Assembly: GCA_903873485.1 (NCBI GenBank) | Contig: CAIQOO010000074.1 | Span: forward strand, 20,453-84,452 | Direction: 5' to 3' | From: an uncultured beta proteobacterium | GTDB taxonomy: Bacteria; Pseudomonadota; Gammaproteobacteria; Burkholderiales; Burkholderiaceae_C | DNA length: 64,000 nt | In this document: positions 1,726-59,810 of the stretch, piece after piece | How positions within the stretch are numbered: the first letter of the stretch is position 1 | Layout: every line of letters starts with the position of its first letter | Program-made: the position numbers and the translations under genes | Notes under the pieces: generated by a model | The model's input: the letters and a program-made list of their open reading frames with translations, nothing else | What the model was told of the DNA's origin: nothing | Database searches by the model: none

Positions 1726-1893
1726 GTTGGGACGATGCGCCGATAGTCGGGTGCAGCTTGCAACCCAACCACGATTTCTTTCAAGCCACTTGGTATCCAC
1801 TCAGCATTCCGACCCCGCAAGCGGGGCAGATGTTCGTGAAGAAACAAAAAAGACAGTGACGGTGGAAATAGCGCAGTGCGTGATTCATATATG

Positions 1894-1950
1894 CCAAATC
1901 AGCCTCTAGCCCCCGTACTGTATGCGCTGATAGCTCTGTTTTTCATATCG
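1894..1950 (+). repeat. 56-bp dispersed element, copy 1 (intergenic)
   Basis: ccaaatcagcctctagcccccgtactgtatgcgctgatagctctgtttttcatatcg matches consensus CAAATnnGCCTCTAGCCCTTAT-n6-GCGC-n3-TAGCTAT-n7-ATAGCA. Confidence 0.8.
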
Positions 1951-2098: not shown

Positions 2099-2385
2099 TC
2101 AAAAGTACTGCCGGGCGAAGTTGGCGATTGCCAGAGCAATGACGATGCCCCACCATCCACTGCAATTTGTCGAGCTTGGCATCAAGGCCGTTCATGCGAC
2201 GCTCTACTCTAACCACATCAGCGCGCCGGGTCTGAATGTCTGCCTTGCTCGCCAGAGAAGTATCAGGCACCTCTGCAAAAGCTTCGCGCTGCGCATCTGC
2301 CTGCTGCCGCAGCAAGTTCCCGGCTTGCACCCACTTTTTCCAGGCATTCAACGAACTTCAGGGTGCCGAATGTGATGCGGCTCAT
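2099..2385 (-). pseudogene. DUF1640/CCDC90-like small membrane-anchored coiled-coil protein, two frameshifts
   Basis: Three frames join into one homolog of 3688 and 3935: MSRITFGTLKFVECLEKVGASRE / QADAQREAFAEVPDTSLASKAD...LDKLQWMVG / GIVIALAIANFARQYF-stop. Confidence 0.8.
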
Positions 2386-2590
2386 GCGCCGGAGTTTGCC
2401 TGCCCGGTGCTCCTTTTGCAGGGGCGGGCGTTGTAACAACCCCACATTGGTGCGTTCAATCCATGCCAGACGCTTGAAAACGCTTTGCGCGGATGGGCGG
2501 CTCTGTTTTAATCCACTCAGCTTCTGTTAGAGAAGTGAAACGAAGTGCGAAAAAGCGCTTCAACGAAATCAACAACTTTGGAGTAATTCA

Positions 2591-3565
2591 ATGAAAAAAT
2601 CGCTCGTCGCGCTGGCTGTGCTAGCCGCTTCCGGTGCCGCCATGGCCCAGTCTTCCGTCACTTTGTACGGTGTAGCTGATGTCGGCTTTGCAGTGGAAGA
2701 CAATGGTACAACTTCTACAACCCGCATGGATTCAAGCAACTTGAATGGCAACCGTTGGGGGCTGAAGGGTGCCGAAGACCTCGGCGGTGGCCTGAAAGCC
2801 ATTTTCGTAATCGAAAGCGGGTTTAGCCTTGACACGGGTGCTCAGGCCAGCGCGACATCGCTTTTTAACCGCCAATCTTATGTTGGAGTCAGTGGCGGCT
2901 TCGGTACCGTCAAGTTCGGACGTCAAATGAATTCCGTTTATTCAAATTCCGGCACTTTTGATCCGTTCGGCGATGCGCTGGCTGGTGATACTGCTCGCCT
3001 GCTGAACTACCAAGGCAGCCGCACCGACAATGCGATTACTTACGCCTACGCTGCCAGTGGCTTCCGTGGTGAATTCCAATACGCTTTGGGTGAGGTTGCT
3101 GGCAACAGTTCCGCCAGTCGCATGATTGGTGGCTTTGTGGGTTACAAAAATGGCCCGATCGACGTGGTTTTGACGACTCAAGACACGCGTAATGCAACCG
3201 ATACCGACAGCACCAAGGTGACCTTGTTGGGCGGAAATTACAACTTTGGCTTCGCCAAGGCGTTTTTGACCTTTGACATGGAAAAAGGCACAGGTACAAC
3301 TGACCTGCGTCACCTGGTTGTTGGTGCAACTGTTCCCATCGCTTCTGGCTCACTCATGCTGTCTTACATCCAGCGTCAAGATCAGGTAGTTGATGACAAA
3401 GATGCTGAGCAATTTGCGATTGGCTATACCTATGATTTGTCCAAGCGTACTGCGCTCTACACCAGCTACAGCCGTTTGACGAACGATGCCAAGTCTTCGG
3501 TCAAAGTCGTGAAAGCTGGCGACACAAATTCGTTGTTCAACTTGGGTGTTCGCCACTTCTTCTAA
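2591..3565 (+). CDS. outer membrane porin
   Basis: MKKSLVALAVLA signal peptide, AQSSVTLYG, NRWGLKGAEDLGGGLKA, ends VRHFF; GGAG RBS upstream. Confidence 0.95.
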   Translation: MKKSLVALAVLAASGAAMAQSSVTLYGVADVGFAVEDNGTTSTTRMDSSNLNGNRWGLKGAEDLGGGLKAIFVIESGFSLDTGAQASATSLFNRQSYVGVSGGFGTVKFGRQMNSVYSNSGTFDPFGDALAGDTARLLNYQGSRTDNAITYAYAASGFRGEFQYALGEVAGNSSASRMIGGFVGYKNGPIDVVLTTQDTRNATDTDSTKVTLLGGNYNFGFAKAFLTFDMEKGTGTTDLRHLVVGATVPIASGSLMLSYIQRQDQVVDDKDAEQFAIGYTYDLSKRTALYTSYSRLTNDAKSSVKVVKAGDTNSLFNLGVRHFF

Positions 3566-6807: not shown

Positions 6808-7800
6808 CTAGGCCACCAGCGCCAGTGCGCCAAAGTCGCCGACTTTTTCACCCAGGCCGGCGCTGACCAGTTCGCAGCCATCGGTCAGTGGCGGCAACTT
6901 GCCATGAATCGCGTTGCGCAGACGCGGCAGCAGGTAGTCGCGGTGGTGCCAATAGACACTGCCGCCGATGCTGATGCGCGCCAGGTCGAGCGTGGCGATC
7001 AGGTTGTAGAGCATCCTCCCCATCACCTCACATATATCATCAATAATGGCTGTAGCCCTTATGTCACCTGCGTAAGCTGCTATAAAAAGACTAGCTGAGT
7101 CAGCGTAACCGGACGGTGCAAAACGCCGTGCCAGGGCATTGCCGGCAATCAGGCTTTCGACATCGCCGACGTTGCCGCAGCCGCACAGCGCGTCATCGTT
7201 GTCGCTGACAAAAATATGACCGGCATGACCGGCATTACCGTTTTTGCCGCGCAGCACACGGCCATCGACACACAGCCCGGTGCCAATGCCGGTGCTCCAG
7301 GTGACATAAGCACAGTTGTCCAGCGCCACACCATCAAGTTGCAAAGCGCCCCAGCGCCGCTCGGCCTCCAGCGCGCCAATCCCATCGTTCTCGACCCGTA
7401 CATGGGCAAAAGCGGCGCGCAGTGGCGCTTCTAGCAAGGCGGTTTTCCAGTCATTGGGCAAACCGCGTGCCCGTCCAGCCAGTCCGCCACAGATATTGGG
7501 CGTGGCCAGTTCGACCTGGCCACGATGGCGCACAAACGGCCCGCATGATGCCACACCGACCCGGGCAATGCGCTCCACCGGCACACCCGAAGCAGCACAG
7601 CTCTGGCCGATCAGCCGAATGATCTGCTGGCCCAGCGCATCGTTGCTGCCAGAGGTGGCAGTCGGCTCGAAAACCTTGCCGCGAACGCCTTGCGCATCGA
7701 CGATATTGACCGCTACCTTGGTGCCGCCAATATCGACACAGGCCACAGGTGCGGCGCCAACCGGCAGCCTGAAACCATCCAGCAATATATTTGAGCTCAT
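6808..7800 (-). CDS. ROK family sugar kinase-like protein
   Basis: DIGGTK ATP motif, ENDG, STGIGTG, GNAGHAGH, CGCGNVG. Confidence 0.88.
   Translation of the reverse strand: MSSNILLDGFRLPVGAAPVACVDIGGTKVAVNIVDAQGVRGKVFEPTATSGSNDALGQQIIRLIGQSCAASGVPVERIARVGVASCGPFVRHRGQVELATPNICGGLAGRARGLPNDWKTALLEAPLRAAFAHVRVENDGIGALEAERRWGALQLDGVALDNCAYVTWSTGIGTGLCVDGRVLRGKNGNAGHAGHIFVSDNDDALCGCGNVGDVESLIAGNALARRFAPSGYADSASLFIAAYAGDIRATAIIDDICEVMGRMLYNLIATLDLARISIGGSVYWHHRDYLLPRLRNAIHGKLPPLTDGCELVSAGLGEKVGDFGALALVA
7041..7096 (+). repeat. 56-bp dispersed element, copy 2 (inside ROK CDS)
   Basis: caataatggctgtagcccttatgtcacctgcgtaagctgctataaaaagactagc; AT-rich patch within a GC-rich CDS. Confidence 0.75.
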
Positions 7801-9731: not shown

Positions 9732-10541
9732 ATGTCTAACGAAACCCCTCCCGCCCTGCGCCCGCGCACTGTTTTAATCACCGGTGCGGCCAAGCGGCTG
9801 GGCCGCGAAATTGCCCTGACCCTGGCCCGCGAGGGCTGGCGGGTTGCCGTCCACTTTCGCGACTCGGTCGAAGATGCTTCTAAAACTGTAGCTGACTGCG
9901 CAAGACTGGCGGGGGCTAGCGCCTCATTTCGTGCCAATCTGGCAAATGAGACGGCGGTGCGCAACCTGCTGCCCAATGTGATCAGCCAGTTTGGCTATGT
10001 GGATGCGCTGGTCAACAGCGCCTCCACCTTTGAGCATGACACGACCGAAACCTTCAGCTTTGCCGCCATGGAAAAACACATGCGAAGCAATGCCGGTGCG
10101 GCGATTTTGCTCAGCCAGGCGCTGCATGATCACCTGCAAAGCCGTGCTGATGCCAGCGGTGTGGTGATCAACCTGCTGGACCAGAAGCTGTGGAACCCCA
10201 ACCCCGACTTCACCAGCTACACCCTGTCCAAAGCGGCACTTGAGGCGGCCAACACCATGCTGGCGATGGCGCTGGCGCCGCGCATCCGGGTGGTCGGCGT
10301 GGCGCCGGGCCTGACGCTGGCCAGCCACTGGTCCAAACCGGACAACCTAGTCGGTGCGCCGCAACCCGGTATGCTGGAATTTTCTTCCACCGCCAGCGAT
10401 GTTGCCGCCACCGTGGCGTTTGCCTTGAACAACAAGTCGATCAACGGCACCACGCTACTGGTCGATGGCGGCCAGCATCTGGCCCTGCACAATGCCGCCG
10501 CCAATCGGTCGCCTGCAGCCGCCACTGCGCACCATGTCTAA
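9732..10541 (+). CDS. SDR oxidoreductase, pteridine reductase (FolM/PTR1)-like
   Basis: TGAAKRLG, VNSAS, LLDQK, YTLSK. Confidence 0.85.
   Translation: MSNETPPALRPRTVLITGAAKRLGREIALTLAREGWRVAVHFRDSVEDASKTVADCARLAGASASFRANLANETAVRNLLPNVISQFGYVDALVNSASTFEHDTTETFSFAAMEKHMRSNAGAAILLSQALHDHLQSRADASGVVINLLDQKLWNPNPDFTSYTLSKAALEAANTMLAMALAPRIRVVGVAPGLTLASHWSKPDNLVGAPQPGMLEFSSTASDVAATVAFALNNKSINGTTLLVDGGQHLALHNAAANRSPAAATAHHV
9875..9930 (-). repeat. 56-bp dispersed element, copy 3 (inside SDR CDS)
   Basis: reverse complement gaaatgaggcgctagcccccgccagtcttgcgcagtcagctacagttttagaagca. Confidence 0.7.
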
Positions 10542-13743: not shown

Positions 13744-13747
13744 GTAC

Positions 13748-13803
13748 CAAATAACCTTCTAGCCCTTATGAATAAAGCGTTGATAGCTATATTTATAGTA
13801 GCA
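13748..13803 (+). repeat. 56-bp dispersed element, copy 4 (supplies start of lipoprotein gene)
   Basis: caaataaccttctagcccttatgaataaagcgttgatagctatatttatagtagca; contains ATG 13768. Confidence 0.85.
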
Positions 13804-18207: not shown

Positions 18208-18244
18208 CCGCCAGGGGCCTGTCCAAATCGCTACAATTCAATAC

Positions 18245-18300
18245 AAAATTGACCTCTAGCCCTTATGGAACAAGCGTAGCTAGCTCTATTTTTAATAGCA
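18245..18300 (+). repeat. 56-bp dispersed element, copy 5 (intergenic)
   Basis: caaaattgacctctagcccttatggaacaagcgtagctagctctatttttaatagca. Confidence 0.85.
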
Positions 18301-26465: not shown

Positions 26466-26540
26466 TTTGACGTGAAACACCCCCGTTCGTGGTGAGCTTG
26501 TCGAACCACATGCCCTTCGACTGCGCTCAGGGCGAACGGT
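26466..26540. repeat. REP-like imperfect hairpin doublet with parS-like tail
   Basis: tttgacgtgaaaca-ccccc-gttcgtggtgagcttgtcgaacc...ccttcgactgcgctcagggcgaacgg; 26466-26508 is the inverted near-copy of 59351-59392. Confidence 0.8.
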
Positions 26541-26574: not shown

Positions 26575-27942
26575 TCAGCCGCGCACTTCGCCTTGGCCCA
26601 GCACCACATACTTGAGCGAGGTCAGCCCCTCGATGCCGACCGGGCCACGGGCGTGAAACTTGTCGGTGCTGATGCCGATTTCGGCTCCCAGCCCATACTC
26701 GAAGCCATCGGCAAAACGGGTGCTGGTGTTGACCATCACGCTGGCCGAATCGACCTCGCGCAAAAACTGCTGCGCATGCAGGTGGTCGCGCGTCAGGATG
26801 GCATCGGTGTGGTGGCTGCCATAGTGGTTGATGTGGTCAATCGCCTCATCGACTCCGGCCACGATCCGGATGCTGATGATCGGAGCGAGGTACTCGGCAA
26901 ACCAGTCGGACGGCTGCGCCGGAACCAGTTTCAAGGCCGCTGAACCGGCGTTGCCAAGGCCTTGATTTGCTACAGAATAGCTAGCTGTCAGCGCACTGCC
27001 AGCATAGGCTAGAGCACGATTTTGTTCAAAAGTCTGGAGCAGCAGCAGGGCTTCGGCATCACAGCGCATTTCAACCCCTTTGGCGGCGTAAATGGCGGCA
27101 ATCGGGGGCAAAAACACGGCCGCCACGCCGCGCGCCACCAGCAGGCTTTCGGTTGCGTTGCACGGGCTGTATTTGCTGGTTTTGGCGTTGTCGGCCACCC
27201 TTACTGCCATCTCCAGATCACACGGCTCATCGACATAGGTGTGGCAGTTGCCGTCGAGGTGCTTGATCACCGGCACCTTGGCACCGGCACTGATGCGCTC
27301 AATCAACCCTTTGCCGCCGCGCGGAATGATCAGATCAACATACTGCGGCATGGCGATGAGTTGGTCCACCACGGCGCGGTCGGTGGTTTGCACCAGTTGC
27401 ACCGCGTTTTCTGGCAGGCCGCTTAAGTGCAGCGCCTGTTGCACCAGTCTGGCCAGTGCCCGGTTGGACTCGATCGCCTCGGAGCCGCCGCGCAAAATGC
27501 AGGCGTTGCCACTTTTGATCGACAGGCTGGCGGCTTCGATCGTCACATTGGGCCGACTCTCGAACACCATGCCAAACACGCCAATCGGCACCCGCATCTG
27601 CCCGACCCGGATGCCGCTGGGCTGCTGCCTGATGCCGATCACCTCGCCAATCACATCCGGCATGGCGGCCAGTTGCTCGCAACCCTGGGCGCAGGTTTCG
27701 ATCACGCCGGGCGTCAGCTTGAGCCGATCTACCAGCGGTGCCGCTAGGCCAGCCGACACGGCGCGTTCGATGTCTTTGGCATTGTCAAGCTGCAGTGCGC
27801 CGACGTTGCCCCGCAGCAACTCGGCGAGTTGTCGAAGTGCCTTGTTTTTAAGGGCTGGCGGCGCTTTGGCCATCAGGGCCGAAGCCTGCTTGGCCTGCAA
27901 ACCCAGGGTCTGGGTGTAGTCGGTGATGTCGGATAGGTTCAT
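26575..27942 (-). CDS. proA: gamma-glutamyl phosphate reductase
   Basis: [47 protein letters not shown]; carries an internal insertion. Confidence 0.97.
26968..27023 (-). repeat. 56-bp dispersed element, copy 6 (in frame inside proA)
   Basis: reverse complement aaaatcgtgctctagcctatgctggcagtgcgctgacagctagctattctgtagca, translated as [19 protein letters not shown]. Confidence 0.8.
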
Positions 27943-29858: not shown

Positions 29859-29867
29859 AATTTATAA

Positions 29868-29922
29868 TAAATAGGCCTCTAGCCCTTGTCCAATAAGCGC
29901 ATCTAGCTATCTTAAAAATAGC
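29868..29922 (+). repeat. 56-bp dispersed element, copy 7 (after purC stop)
   Basis: taaataggcctctagcccttgtccaataagcgcatctagctatcttaaaaatagca. Confidence 0.85.
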
Positions 29923-30050
29923 AAATCAGCGGTATTCGGCAACTTCGGCCTGGCCTGCGGCGGGCCGCCATGTGGCCGCCCGCTGCCACCATGTGCTGAC
30001 GTGTCGTGCAACAATGGCCATCCCCTTTCAACAATTTTCAGGAGACCGAG

Positions 30051-30632: not shown

Positions 30633-30962
30633 GGTGGATCTTTTTTAAATTTCCAAAAGACCTACTTTAGGCCCAGCAGTGTCAAGATCGGTGTCGGAAA
30701 ATTTAGGCAGCTACCCGTTGCCAAACCCTTGGCGGACAGATTTTTTCTGTTTTCTGAGACGACTCCCAAATACGCCGCGCAAATTGGCGGCATAGAAAAC
30801 CCCTGGCAAACTCATTTTTCAGAAGCAAATTTTGAAACGCTGGGATCAAACTCTGGCGCGAATTGACAAAATCCGAGGTATTGAAGGTTAAAAGGCTTGA
30901 AATCAGTGCGCCAGATTGAGCGCCACTGCGGTGAATCAGACAAGTGATCCAATTTTTATAGG

Positions 30963-31019
30963 CCAAATCAGCCTGCAGCGCCTGTCCAGATTGCGCTGGC
31001 AGCTACGCTTTGCGAATCA
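30963..31019 (+). repeat. 56-bp dispersed element, copy 8
   Basis: ccaaatcagcctgcagcgcctgtccagattgcgctggcagctacgctttgcgaatca. Confidence 0.7.
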
Positions 31020-49538: not shown

Positions 49539-49617
49539 GATGGGTTAAATGGTTTGGATGGAAGTGCCTGTGTCAGTGCCAACACTGACATTATCGAGGT
49601 GTGCCGATAGATTTATG

Positions 49618-49674
49618 CCAAATCAGCCACCAGCCCTTATGCAGCATGCGCTTGTAGCTATAAATAAAATAGCA
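49618..49674 (+). repeat. 56-bp dispersed element, copy 11
   Basis: ccaaatcagccaccagcccttatgcagcatgcgcttgtagctataaataaaatagca. Confidence 0.85.
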
Positions 49675-50519: not shown

Positions 50520-51821
50520 TCAGGCAATACCCGGCAGCACCGCTTCCGGGGCCGGACTTGACCGGCGCGCCCGCTCGGCGGCCTGCACCGCCGCGACCCT
50601 GGCCTGATGCACCAGTTCACCCACTTTTTGGCCGGTAGCCCCCGCCGCCATTGCGCTGTCAGCTATCTTTTTTGTATCGACCTGCTGCATCACCGCGAGC
50701 ACCGCCAGCAGGTGCTGGCGCTGCGGGTAGGCCTGCCCGGTGTGGCCAAGCCGGCCGCGCGCATCGCATTCGCAGGCCAGCAGGATGTCGGTCATGCGCT
50801 GTGGCTTGCGCAGCGCATCGCAGCGCTCGAGCAGGCGCACCAGCGCGGCGGCGCCGATATCGCTGCTGCGGTGGATGTTGCTGTGTTCGCGTGCCACCAC
50901 ATCAGCGAGTTCGCGCGCCTCGACGGGAATGCGCAGGCGCTGGCAAATTCCCTTGAGCAGTTTGGCGCCGCGCTCTTCGTGGCCCAGATGGCGCGGCAGG
51001 ATGTCGGGCGGGGTGTTGCCTTTGCCCAGGTCGTGAAACAGGCAGGCCACCCGCACCGCCAGTGGCGCCTGCAGCCGGGCCGCCATGTCGAGCACCATCA
51101 TCAGGTGCACGCCGGTATCGACTTCGGGGTGGTAGTCGGCGCGTTGCGACACCCCCCACAGGCAGTCCACTTCGGGCAGCAGGCGCTGCAATGCACCGCA
51201 GGCGCGCAGCACCTCGAACAGGCGCGACGGGGTGGCATCCATCAGTCCGCGCGCCAGTTCCTGCCAGACCCGCTCGGCGACCAGGTGGTCCACCTCGCCG
51301 CTGGCCACCATCTCGCGCATCAGCGCCAGCGTTGCTGGCGCTAGCGTGAAGTCGGCAAAACGCGCGGCAAAACGCGCTACCCGCAGGATGCGCACCGGGT
51401 CTTCCCGAAACTGCGGGCTGACATGGCGCAACAGCCGCGTCGCCAGGTCTGCCATGCCACCATGCGGGTCAATCACCATTTTTGCATCAAAATGGCCTCC
51501 AGCCCTTATGCAGTCTGCGCTGACAGCTATCGCATTAATAGTAAGGTCACGGCGTGCCAGATCGTCTTGCAAGGTCACTTCAGGCGATGCATGGATGACA
51601 AAGCCGTGGTAGCCCGGCGCAGTCTTGCGCTCGGTGCGCGCCAGTGCAAATTCTTCATGGGTTTGTGGGTGCAAAAACACCGGAAAGTCTTTGCCGACCG
51701 GCACAAAGCCTTGGTCGATCAGGGCTTTGGGGGTGGCGCCCACCACCACCCAATCGCGGTCCTTGATCGCCAGTCCCAGCAAGGCATCACGCACCGCACC
51801 GCCCACCAGATAAATTTGCAT
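50520..51821 (-). CDS. cca: multifunctional CCA-adding enzyme with HD domain
   Basis: LVGGAVRD, DRDWV, RRDLTINA, EDPVRILRVARF, HPEVDTGVH, HDLGKG. Confidence 0.96.
   Translation of the reverse strand: MQIYLVGGAVRDALLGLAIKDRDWVVVGATPKALIDQGFVPVGKDFPVFLHPQTHEEFALARTERKTAPGYHGFVIHASPEVTLQDDLARRDLTINAIAVSADCIRAGGHFDAKMVIDPHGGMADLATRLLRHVSPQFREDPVRILRVARFAARFADFTLAPATLALMREMVASGEVDHLVAERVWQELARGLMDATPSRLFEVLRACGALQRLLPEVDCLWGVSQRADYHPEVDTGVHLMMVLDMAARLQAPLAVRVACLFHDLGKGNTPPDILPRHLGHEERGAKLLKGICQRLRIPVEARELADVVAREHSNIHRSSDIGAAALVRLLERCDALRKPQRMTDILLACECDARGRLGHTGQAYPQRQHLLAVLAVMQQVDTKKIADSAMAAGATGQKVGELVHQARVAAVQAAERARRSSPAPEAVLPGIA
51488..51543 (+). repeat. 56-bp dispersed element, copy 12 (inside cca)
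   Basis: caaaatggcctccagcccttatgcagtctgcgctgacagctatcgcattaatagta; antisense reads TINAIAVSADCIRAGGHF. Confidence 0.8.
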
Positions 51822-51822
51822 C

Positions 51823-52506
51823 TCAGGCGTGCAGGCGGTAAGGCTCTTCGAAGTCGCGGAAATCCTGTTCGGCCAGCGCGTCGTCAATCCAGGCCTGGAT
51901 GCCGGGCAGGGCGACTACCCGCTCCAGGTAAGCCAAGATGTCGGGCGGCAGCGGCAGCGCATAAGTGATCAGGCGCGTCAATACCGGCGCAAAGTAGGCA
52001 TCGGCGATGCTGAAGTCGCCAAACAGCAGCGGGCCGCCGTATGTCTTGAGCAGTTGCTGCCACATCGCCACCAGCCGTGCCAGGTCGGCGCGCACGCCGG
52101 GCTGGTCACGCCAGATCAGCGCGCCCACTTGCGGCAGCCGGGCTTCGATGTTCATCGGGCAGGCGCTGCGCAGCGCGCTGAAGCCGCTGTGCATTTCAGC
52201 GCACAGGCTGTGGGCACGGGCACGCGCCGCCTTGTCGGCCGGCCACAGTTGTTTGTCAGGAAACTGCTCGGCGAGGTATTCGGCAATCGCCAGCGTGTCC
52301 CAGATCACCAGCCCAGCATCGACCAGCACCGGCACCTTGGCCACCGGGCTGATTTTGCCGATGGCGGTCTTGAACTGCGAGTCGGGCGTGAAGGCGTCAA
52401 AACGCAGCATGACCTCTTCAAAGTCAATGCCCGCCTGCTTGAGCAGCACCCAGGAGCGCATTGACCAGGAGGAGTAGTTTTTGTTGCCGATGTAGAGTTT
52501 GAGCAT
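51823..52506 (-). CDS. glutathione S-transferase family protein
   Basis: IGNKNYSSWSMR, KVPVL, WDTLAIAEYL, AEMHSGF, ADAYFAP. Confidence 0.93.
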   Translation of the reverse strand: MLKLYIGNKNYSSWSMRSWVLLKQAGIDFEEVMLRFDAFTPDSQFKTAIGKISPVAKVPVLVDAGLVIWDTLAIAEYLAEQFPDKQLWPADKAARARAHSLCAEMHSGFSALRSACPMNIEARLPQVGALIWRDQPGVRADLARLVAMWQQLLKTYGGPLLFGDFSIADAYFAPVLTRLITYALPLPPDILAYLERVVALPGIQAWIDDALAEQDFRDFEEPYRLHA

Positions 52507-57077: not shown

Positions 57078-57605
57078 ATGAATTCCAATATGCTATATAT
57101 TACAGAGCAAGCTACGCATGATCTATGCGGGCTGATGGCCGATTTGCTGCTAAAGAAACACTGGCTGCTGGCAACTGCCGAAAGCTGTACCGGCGGGCTG
57201 ATCGCCGCCGCCTGCACCGACCAAGCCGGCTCCAGCGGCTGGTTTGAGCGCGGTTTTGTGACCTATTCGAATGCCGCCAAGACCGAGCTGCTCGGTGTCG
57301 ATGCCGCGCTGATCCGGCAGCAGGGTGCCGTCAGCGAGGCAGTGGCGCAGGCCATGGCCGCCGGTGCGCTGGCCCGTTCGCATGCCCAGGTGGCGCTGGC
57401 TGTCACCGGGGTGGCCGGCCCGACTGGCGGCAGTGCCGACAAGCCGGTCGGCACCGTCTGGTTTGGCTGGGCCACACCAGCCGGGGTGACCAGCGCGGTG
57501 CAGCACTTTGCCGGCAACCGCGCCGCCGTGCGCGCCGCCACGGTGCAGCATGCGCTGGCGCAGTTGCTGGGCCGGCTGCAAGCCGACCCGGTGGCTGGTG
57601 GCTGA
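57078..57605 (+). CDS. CinA C-terminal domain / NMN deamidase (PncC-like)
   Basis: [29 protein letters not shown]. Confidence 0.92.
57091..57146 (-). repeat. 56-bp dispersed element, copy 13 (encodes CinA N-terminus)
   Basis: reverse complement caaatcggccatcagcccgcatagatcatgcgtagcttgctctgtaatatatagca. Confidence 0.8.
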
Positions 57606-59350: not shown

Positions 59351-59378
59351 TGGTTCGACAAGCTCACCATGAACGGGG
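59351..59378 (+). repeat. half REP-like element heading the tandem array
   Basis: tggttcgacaagctcaccatgaacgggg; inverted near-copy of 26481-26508. Confidence 0.75.
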
Positions 59379-59520
59379 TGTTTCACGTCAAAAACGGCGG
59401 TGTTTCACGTCAAAAACGGCGGTGTTTCACGTCAAAAACGGCGGTGTTTCACGTCAAAAACGGCGGTGTTTCACGTCAAAAACGGCGGTGTTTCACGTCA
59501 AAAACGGCGGTGTTTCACGT
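59377..59520 (+). repeat. perfect 22-bp tandem repeat, six full units plus 12 bp
   Basis: Unit GGTGTTTCACGTCAAAAACGGC starting at 59377, 59399, 59421, 59443, 59465, 59487, partial at 59509; no spacers. Confidence 0.97.
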
Positions 59521-59583
59521 TAATCTGGTGGCTGCGAAACCAGCCGACAATGTCACCGGTAAATGCTGCATAGCGACATTCGG

Positions 59584-59640
59584 TGACTATGATATATATA
59601 GCTTGCTACGCTTTATGGATAAGGGCTACAGCCATATTTT
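59584..59640 (-). repeat. 56-bp dispersed element, copy 14
   Basis: reverse complement aaaatatggctgtagcccttatccataaagcgtagcaagctatatatatcatagtca. Confidence 0.8.
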
Positions 59641-59810
59641 GCTTAAAAAATGTGGTTTCAGGCAGGCGGCCCGCAGGCCATTCGCCGCAGCATTTTGACA
59701 GCCGTTTTTTGGCTCCACTATTTCAAGCCGCCAGGCTTGGCGCGTGCTTGTCAGCTTGGTTGCGCTGAGCATGCGGACAATGGCGGCAGCGCTGCTGCGC
59801 AGTCAGCCAG

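Follow-up and report, generated by a model that had tools for sequence, protein, structure and literature searches.

The window, a stretch of 64,000 nucleotides of a Rhodoferax assembly (contig C74:20453-84452), carries genes for a ROK-family sugar kinase, a short-chain dehydrogenase/reductase (SDR) and the CCA-adding tRNA nucleotidyltransferase (cca), each of which is host to one or two copies of a short repeat (Table 1). The copy in the ROK gene forms an AT-rich island of ca. 60 nt within a GC-rich ORF. Repeat finding showed that the window holds at least 14 copies of this 63-base dispersed family. An nhmmer profile was seeded with seven intergenic copies of the window and iterated over the whole assembly until convergence, which gave 821 copies in 4.70 Mb of 58.9% GC, a density of one per 5.7 kb.

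Table 1 Copies of the 63-base repeat and their host genes in the window
Feature	Position	Strand	Basis
Intergenic copy	1888..1947	+	nhmmer 44.6 bits
ROK-family sugar kinase gene, 330 aa, host of copy	6808..7800	-	ORF list
ROK copy	7040..7095	+	nhmmer profile positions 7-62, 32.8 bits, E 2.6e-7
SDR gene, host of copy	9732..10541	+	ORF list; ortholog alignment
SDR copy	9875..9932	-	nhmmer positions 6-63, 34.5 bits, E 7.6e-8
Intergenic or gene-start copy	13744..13803	+	nhmmer 44.7 bits
Intergenic copy	18241..18300	+	nhmmer 49.4 bits
ORF of 455 residues, presumably proA (gamma-glutamyl phosphate reductase)	26575..27942		
Sense-frame copy inside proA, encodes 21 residues	26967..27030	-	nhmmer 37.0 bits, coding flanks
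Intergenic copy	29861..29923	+	nhmmer 52.2 bits
Intergenic copy, 3' end truncated	30957..31008	+	nhmmer 38.7 bits
Intergenic full-length copy 3' of cca, family reference example	49612..49674	+	nhmmer 54.4 bits; covariance model 56.4 bits
cca gene, host of two copies	50520..51887	-	ORF list
Second, weaker cca copy near gene 3' end	50628..50678	+	nhmmer 27.4 bits, E 1.2e-5
cca copy, full length	51481..51543	+	nhmmer positions 1-63, 53.5 bits, E 8.8e-14
Gene-boundary copy	57091..57148	-	nhmmer 31.3 bits
Intergenic copy adjoining 22-bp tandem array	59587..59647	-	nhmmer 45.3 bits

The consensus of the 821-copy profile is TTTATGTCAAATCGGCCTCTAGCCCTTGTGGAACATGCGCTGGCAGCTATTAATTTTATAGCAA, in which the blocks AAAT, GCCT, AGCCC, GCGC, AGCTAT and (T)AGCA are 85-100% conserved and variable stretches lie between them. 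The spacers between blocks are AT-rich, and (G/C)TAGCCC is an extended form of the AGCCC block, as is ATAGCA of the last one. The 3' end is a GCTAT-N7-ATAGC dyad with 5-bp GCTAT/ATAGC arms. At the centre, AGCCCTT/AAGCGCT may form an imperfect stem with a constant C.C mismatch and (G/C)TAG before it; base-pair covariation was not found among the 821 copies, the highest mutual information being 0.17 bits. An Rfam search of the window matched no family, and a search with a sequence-only covariance model of 16 genomes outside the family but within the order yielded no copy.

Copies are spaced almost at random along the chromosome (coefficient of variation 0.91). Neighbouring copies within 150 bp amount to 2.5% as against 2.9% expected at random, so that there is no inverted-pair (REPIN/BIME) organisation. 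Convergent spacers, which are 20% of all spacers, hold 30% of the intergenic copies, and divergent spacers are depleted; no bias of the copies by replication strand or transcription orientation was seen. The consensus ends TTTATG... and ...ATAGCAA are not the inverted repeats of a MITE, nor were a target duplication, a parent element or recent empty sites for the study of junctions seen. The copy at 59587-59647 adjoins a perfect 22-bp tandem array (GGTGTTTCACGTCAAAAACGGC, ca. 6.5-7 units, window 59355-59552), the left edge of which has a 28-nt inverted match at 26481-26508. The ORF that we take, from its protein family, to be proA is longer than we would expect of ProA proteins, and the copy in it therefore probably adds length.

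Copies inside the ROK, SDR and cca genes

The initial annotation had placed full-length copies in the ROK, SDR and cca ORFs, antisense to each gene and without a break in frame. The ROK, SDR and both cca copies are indeed antisense to their host genes and share one common, stop-free frame (..ATA GCT .. AGG/GGG GCT ..), but those in ROK and SDR lack the first ca. six profile positions. We back-translated the same peptides with the genome's own codon usage, 1,000 recodings each. Not one of the 1,000 reached the real score for any of the ROK, SDR and cca peptides, the best recoded versus real scores being 8.8 versus 32.8, 12.4 versus 34.5 and 23.9 versus 53.5, respectively. Since the recodings never reach the real scores, the resemblance is one of DNA, in the choice of codons, rather than of peptides.

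The element region of the ROK protein reads SLFIAAYAGDIRATAII, and the copy itself encodes SASLFIAAYAGDIRATAIIDDI with zero net length change. This peptide had been quoted correctly and likened to the normal helix of ROK proteins; the segment bears the family LF...AGD..A pattern and is collinear with solved ROK kinases, the PDB matches being glucokinase and N-acetylmannosamine kinase (E 1e-22). Twenty Rhodoferax orthologs align to the gene gap-free, and orthologs from other genera of the family are equal in local length and are written in ordinary GC-rich codons. The segment is ALFQAAEAGDAQAGAIVDELC in the element-free ortholog of G045 versus SLFIAAYAGDIRATAIIDDIC here; the two share 12 of the 21 residues, and in ten codons the change is synonymous and runs toward A/T and the element. 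The ROK copy originated close to the base of Rhodoferax, out of native sequence that was GC-rich and exactly as long.

The SDR copy encodes ASKTVADCARLAGASASFRA, again with zero net length change, and the protein aligns gap-free with orthologs of the genus, of four other families and of other genera as well as with the neighbouring paralog. Its peptide differs in a cluster (..CARLAGASASFRA.. here versus ..IKALGRRSVALQC.. in outgroups), and four further element-rich genera have the copy too, at 21-35 bits. In both ROK and SDR, the codon alignments that had been proposed as a check revealed clustered substitutions converging on the element consensus, many of them at synonymous sites. Elsewhere in the SDR protein, residues ca. 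206-225 read SHWSKPDNLVGAPQPGMLEFSS in this genome only and SHMLSPEKFEALHKLSPLGHSS in all orthologs, and the protein extends 18 residues further than normal and overlaps the beginning of the SDR gene that follows; a compensated frameshift with a lost stop, or else a sequencing error, seems to lie behind this.

The full-length cca copy encodes TINAIAVSADCIRAGGHFDAK and brings a net gain of ten residues as compared to other families and element-free genera, in which the loop has five residues (QGDDG) versus at least 15 in Rhodoferax. The dyad end of the element had been said to encode a conserved motif, which is borne out: the codons ACT ATT AAT GCG ATA GCT (TINAIA) underlie the 3' dyad, and the TINA(I/M)A region is GCTATTGAATTGATAGT here versus GCCATCGCATTGATGGT in outgroups. 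Orthologs of cca were present in all 17 genera searched. The second copy, which the initial annotation had not listed, encodes KKIADSAMAAGATGQKV, adds ca. four residues relative to other families (alignment columns 401-432) and was detected in five orthologs. The proposal that copies replace an equal-length stretch thus holds for ROK and SDR, which have no net indel, and also for MutS, RibD, IspD and others, but fails for cca with its gain of ca. ten residues. The intergenic presence or absence of copies around cca and ROK in relatives could not be used to define empty sites, synteny being too broken. A second insert, of 13-15 residues and with a conserved Trp (..P..W...G), follows directly on the element peptide in about half of the cca genes of Rhodoferax (alignment A3 columns 116-131; loci L038, L039, L042, L044, L045, L051 and L055); this insert is absent from this genome and from other families.

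In-gene copies across the genome and their age

We estimate from open frames, coding-like flanks and a codon log-odds model trained on long ORFs that 118-152 of the 821 copies (ca. 15-18%) lie in coding sequence and are translated in frame. They use all six frames, mainly the two that are stop-free, sense PNQPPALAGQALPAIKNIA and antisense SIAASAxxIRARGQKD. Flanked segments of in-gene copies were concatenated and searched against 8-10 outgroup genomes, and the net gain across ca. 28 copies overall ranged from 0 to +24 residues, MetH (about +38) apart. The gain relative to outgroups amounted to the full element length or more in MetH, MoeA (+24) and XseA (+23), to about half of it in ThiL, PurL (two sites), DapF, PurK, LeuS and one more (+7 to +14), to a few residues in ArgF, FolC and the second cca site (+2 to +4), and to about zero in MutS, RibD, IspD and about five to seven other genes. 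About one third of the tested copies, then, add no residues and have replaced native sequence. Equal-length replacement, unit insertion and partial replacement are all common. Zero-length copies score lower than peptide-adding ones (25-46 versus 44-58 bits), and their sites show no length polymorphism in 15-21 genomes. Within-genome paralog alignments were too noisy for measuring net length, with the exception of SDR.

Unit insertion was shown by MoeA and XseA. The 23 extra residues of MoeA lie exactly around the 21-residue element and the outgroup flanks are contiguous, so that the element came in as a unit. In adding full-length peptides the family does as Rickettsia elements do, contrary to the contrast that had been drawn with the latter. 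Pgi gains six residues at the element and loses an unrelated six or seven ca. 25 residues downstream, for an apparent net change of zero. The Pgi of G000 (contig C109:23066-23485) is without the conserved W-x-G-Y-T-G-K segment of three aligned other-family orthologs. The PurL alleles of G018, G001, G008 and G007 are 9-13 residues shorter and back at outgroup length, and that of G018 keeps the 3' part of the element despite the shortening. Compensating deletion after insertion occurs, as these four alleles demonstrate; since such 'empty' alleles look like secondary deletions, they provide no clean junctions. The purL gene of G000 (contig C153:49489-53905) has two copies of the element, YMPNQPPALAGQALSAIESVV and SAKSASSPYGVCAASYQKES, which differ in frame and orientation; two copies per gene were also found in putA and cca.

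Replacement of native sequence was shown most clearly in MutS. Three element-free genera have the native form TLQ-LLPQLQGTVPAGS-ALL, and five element-rich genera have TLQ-KSELLAHSGQGLE-ALL or close variants; the two forms are of equal length and share no residue across the 13-residue core. When placed against the profile in register, native sequences scored from -103 to -120, which is the random level (null mean -97). As the native MutS DNA scores at random, neither homology-anchored conversion nor gradual convergence is supported for MutS. Similarity of native targets to the element as an anchor for recombination was rejected, because the matches seen by eye in MutS and PurL were not above random in register.

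Of 121 genera sampled from the bacterial family of Rhodoferax, at least 45 have the element, the counts in ca. 27 of these 45 being lower bounds. The 24 Rhodoferax genomes are bimodal: fourteen have at least 129-130 copies, two have 41-47 and nine have 0-5. In single-gene and concatenated trees, the element-poor genomes fall within groups of rich ones, and the MutS of element-poor Rhodoferax still encodes a decayed element peptide, which together indicate at least five losses of the family. In-gene copies at orthologous sites score 10-50 bits where the genome is rich in the element and next to nothing where it is poor; those in MutS and SDR are orthologous in at least five genera, four of them beyond Rhodoferax.

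The AT content at third codon positions of the element region in ROK, SDR and MutS was 0.78, 0.61 and 0.56, respectively, in element-rich genomes (flanks 0.23-0.29) and 0.38, 0.26 and 0.25 in element-poor genomes (flanks 0.25-0.28). Compared pairwise, rich genomes show at least as high an identity at these positions as in the flanks. In the lineages without the family (at least five), the AT-rich synonymous sites have decayed to the host GC content and the derived peptide has been kept. The suggestion in the initial annotation of selection for a DNA site within genes fits these conserved AT-rich synonymous sites. Its other suggestion, conversion-like spread, was not seen as a current process: the copies are orthologous across species and genera, and identity at the 26 variable positions within the genome averages 0.37 and reaches 0.85 in only 8 of 178,503 pairs. 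The best-partner identity at these positions has a median of 0.69 and is 0.58-0.69 for the ROK, SDR, cca and MutS copies. This low identity indicates that the copies are old within the genome. The in-gene events are ancient and ongoing conversion is not supported; whole-element gene conversion and recent bursts were both rejected on the near absence of similar pairs. The simplest reading of the above results is that individual copies, whether in genes or between them, have long been under block-wise purifying selection, which would be lifted on loss of a putative trans-acting component.

Origin and maintenance of the in-gene copies

The element is best explained as an old, vertically inherited, REP-like dispersed element of ca. 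63 nt that is common to many genera of the Rhodoferax family. It is hypothesised that copies came into genes by integration with variable loss of target DNA, were filtered by selection and have since been under purifying selection at the DNA level; as an overall explanation, we give this an even chance of being right. The element would enter a gene as a unit, and target DNA of variable length (0 to about 60 nt) would be lost, either at integration, through break repair or template switching, or soon afterwards through a compensating deletion. Selection would retain only in-frame products of tolerable length, namely those of equal length in helices and strands and longer ones in loops. Block-wise purifying selection at the DNA (or RNA) level would follow, presumably via a putative trans-acting factor, and loss of this factor would account for the en-bloc decay of sites.

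Several observations weigh on this integration model. Integration machinery and a clean recent empty site were both sought in vain, and, with no such site, neither the junctions nor a target duplication nor a loss of target DNA during integration was observed. With its 12 of 21 native residues kept and its ten synonymous changes, ROK looks more like in-place rewriting than the swapping in of a foreign block, and is therefore an awkward case. As zero-length sites lack length polymorphism, a two-step path must have been completed on one stem branch every time. Purifying selection on ca. 800 separate sites, moreover, needs a function, which counts against the model.

The main rival is gradual convergence in place, by which a genome-wide functional signal, either a protein-binding site or an uptake-type sequence, is written by many point substitutions, with no insertion at zero-length sites, under selection or molecular drive as in Haemophilus and Neisseria. 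We consider this unlikely. The ROK copy, with its retained family AGD..A motif and its synonymous changes, is what such convergence predicts, and other features are in keeping with it: the copies are old, conserved in position across species and genera and almost devoid of recent duplicates; they have no strand or replication bias and near-random spacing; the family is either abundant or absent, with all sites decaying together; and zero-length copies score below peptide-adding ones. However, 13 consecutive residues were swapped in MutS from a native start without detectable similarity, and MoeA and XseA acquired clean units of 21-24 residues. The known uptake sequences, USS of Pasteurellaceae and DUS of Neisseriaceae, have cores of 9-12 nt, and a 63-nt multi-block signal far exceeds the length of any of them. 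Like uptake sequences, the element has many in-gene copies without indels, preferred frames and positions conserved between species; it is preserved as DNA, and all sites go together once the system has changed. Its length, its density and its clean unit insertions, unlike these features, do not fit that model.

Ongoing ectopic gene conversion, by which ca. 800 donors would repeatedly convert partly similar segments and refresh old in-gene copies, is distinctly improbable. Zero-length replacement would be its expected product, and in-gene copies stay near the consensus only in genomes that hold many copies. Against it, the variable positions are unique to each copy, as the best-partner median indicates, orthologous copies share descent in the variable loop (e.g. 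CCGT... in MutS), and native MutS offers no homology for anchoring. A plain full-length insertion everywhere, with the zero-length cases being alignment artefacts or insertions combined with an unrelated deletion, is highly improbable. Pgi, with its apparent net of zero, is such a case, and the loop lengths of cca and PurL vary among species; ROK, SDR and MutS, however, are gap-free through structured conserved segments against close and distant homologs and solved structures, with native and element forms staying in register on either side. Chance resemblance or local codon bias, the latter an objection already raised with the initial annotation, could appeal to the conserved blocks reading as Ala codons and to the GCN positions that Ala-rich helices share with the element, but it is refuted by the recoding null with 0 of 1,000 synonymous recodings at the real scores, by genome-wide E-values of the order of 1e-7 or better, by the lack of matches in 16 outgroup genomes and by a signal that tracks the presence of the family across genomes.

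Comparison with known repeats

Most known cases of translated repeats within bacterial genes come from Rickettsia and a few REP families, and have been treated as tolerated insertions. The Rickettsia palindromic elements (RPE-1 and relatives) were reportedly described by Ogata et al. in 2000. Compared by behaviour, the present element resembles these RPEs in being a short dispersed repeat with both intergenic copies and in-frame copies in many unrelated genes that are often essential, in the use of stop-free frames only, in the many copies that add a 20-24-residue peptide (MoeA, XseA), and in being old and orthologous between species. Unlike the RPEs, it resides in a free-living host with a GC-rich, 4.7-Mb genome, is shorter, and has no clear palindrome or covariation; about one third of its tested in-gene copies add nothing and replace native sequence, and it shows synonymous-site conservation at the DNA level and en-bloc decay.

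Intragenic GTAG/CGTC REPs have been catalogued (Di Nocera et al. 2013, PMC3733652), and intragenic RPE-4/-6 are discussed in the same paper. The behaviour of the element is closest to that of the Rickettsia RPEs and of these intragenic REPs. It shares with REPs the hundreds of vertically inherited, long-lived copies that prefer convergent, 3' intergenic regions, the (G/C)TAG tag ahead of a short imperfect stem, copies that supply stop codons, and some copies inside genes, repair genes included (MutS, UvrD-like, XseA). The published intragenic REPs, however, are described as insertions, equal-length replacement not being part of the description (PMC3733652), and neither a conservation of synonymous sites across genera nor a decay en bloc figures in the descriptions of RPEs and intragenic REPs. 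The Betaproteobacterial repeat element (BRE; Hot et al. 2011, PMC3110155) occurs in Comamonadaceae including Rhodoferax, with some copies in coding sequence; it is ca. 90 bp long with 69% GC, has four copies in R. ferrireducens and is often tandem, and was ruled out as the present element on length, GC content, copy number and tandem arrangement. A limited literature search, which is no proof that the family is undescribed, found no description of the present 63-nt family.

The element may be a genome-wide DNA or RNA signal, putatively a factor-binding or uptake-type site, that writes itself into coding sequence at unchanged length and is held for the lifetimes of whole genera, a reading to which we assign only a small chance. 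The writing would proceed through synonymous and conservative substitutions or short templated patches, and hundreds of genic and intergenic sites would decay together once the cognate factor was lost. If true, essential bacterial genes would be subject to an additional sequence constraint of a new class. The family is distinctive in four respects, namely the free-living betaproteobacterial host with ca. one sixth of some 820 copies inside genes, the sizeable class of copies that replace structured native sequence at equal length, the synonymous sites conserved across genera within copies, and the natural 'knock-outs' provided by lineages without the family, in which the sites are decaying. 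What maintains short dispersed repeats over very long periods, and to what extent a DNA-level signal can overlay coding sequence, can thus be tested by comparative genomics and simple genetics. Element segments also distort analyses of codon usage, horizontal transfer and selection in housekeeping genes of Comamonadaceae-type genomes.

REP and REPIN elements are associated with RAYT transposases (Bertels and Rainey, PMC3116915). Unlike REPINs, the copies described here are not in inverted pairs. The idea that a RAYT or IS200 transposase mobilises or maintains the element was rejected, as the presence of such a gene does not track element richness. G000 has a single RAYT-like Y1 transposase gene of 239 codons (contig C11:2478-3197, region 2280-3330). 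Unlike in REP-RAYT systems, this gene is flanked by another repeat, a second family that stands inverted on its two sides (GGGGTCAGAGTCGAAT / ATTCGACTCTGACCCC), and it is present regardless of the element family, in rich as well as in poor genomes. Of the RAYT-like gene, only the last codons (KPN) and the stop come from the 63-nt element, and in an element-poor relative the tail of this gene survives as ..NKPNQKQPE.
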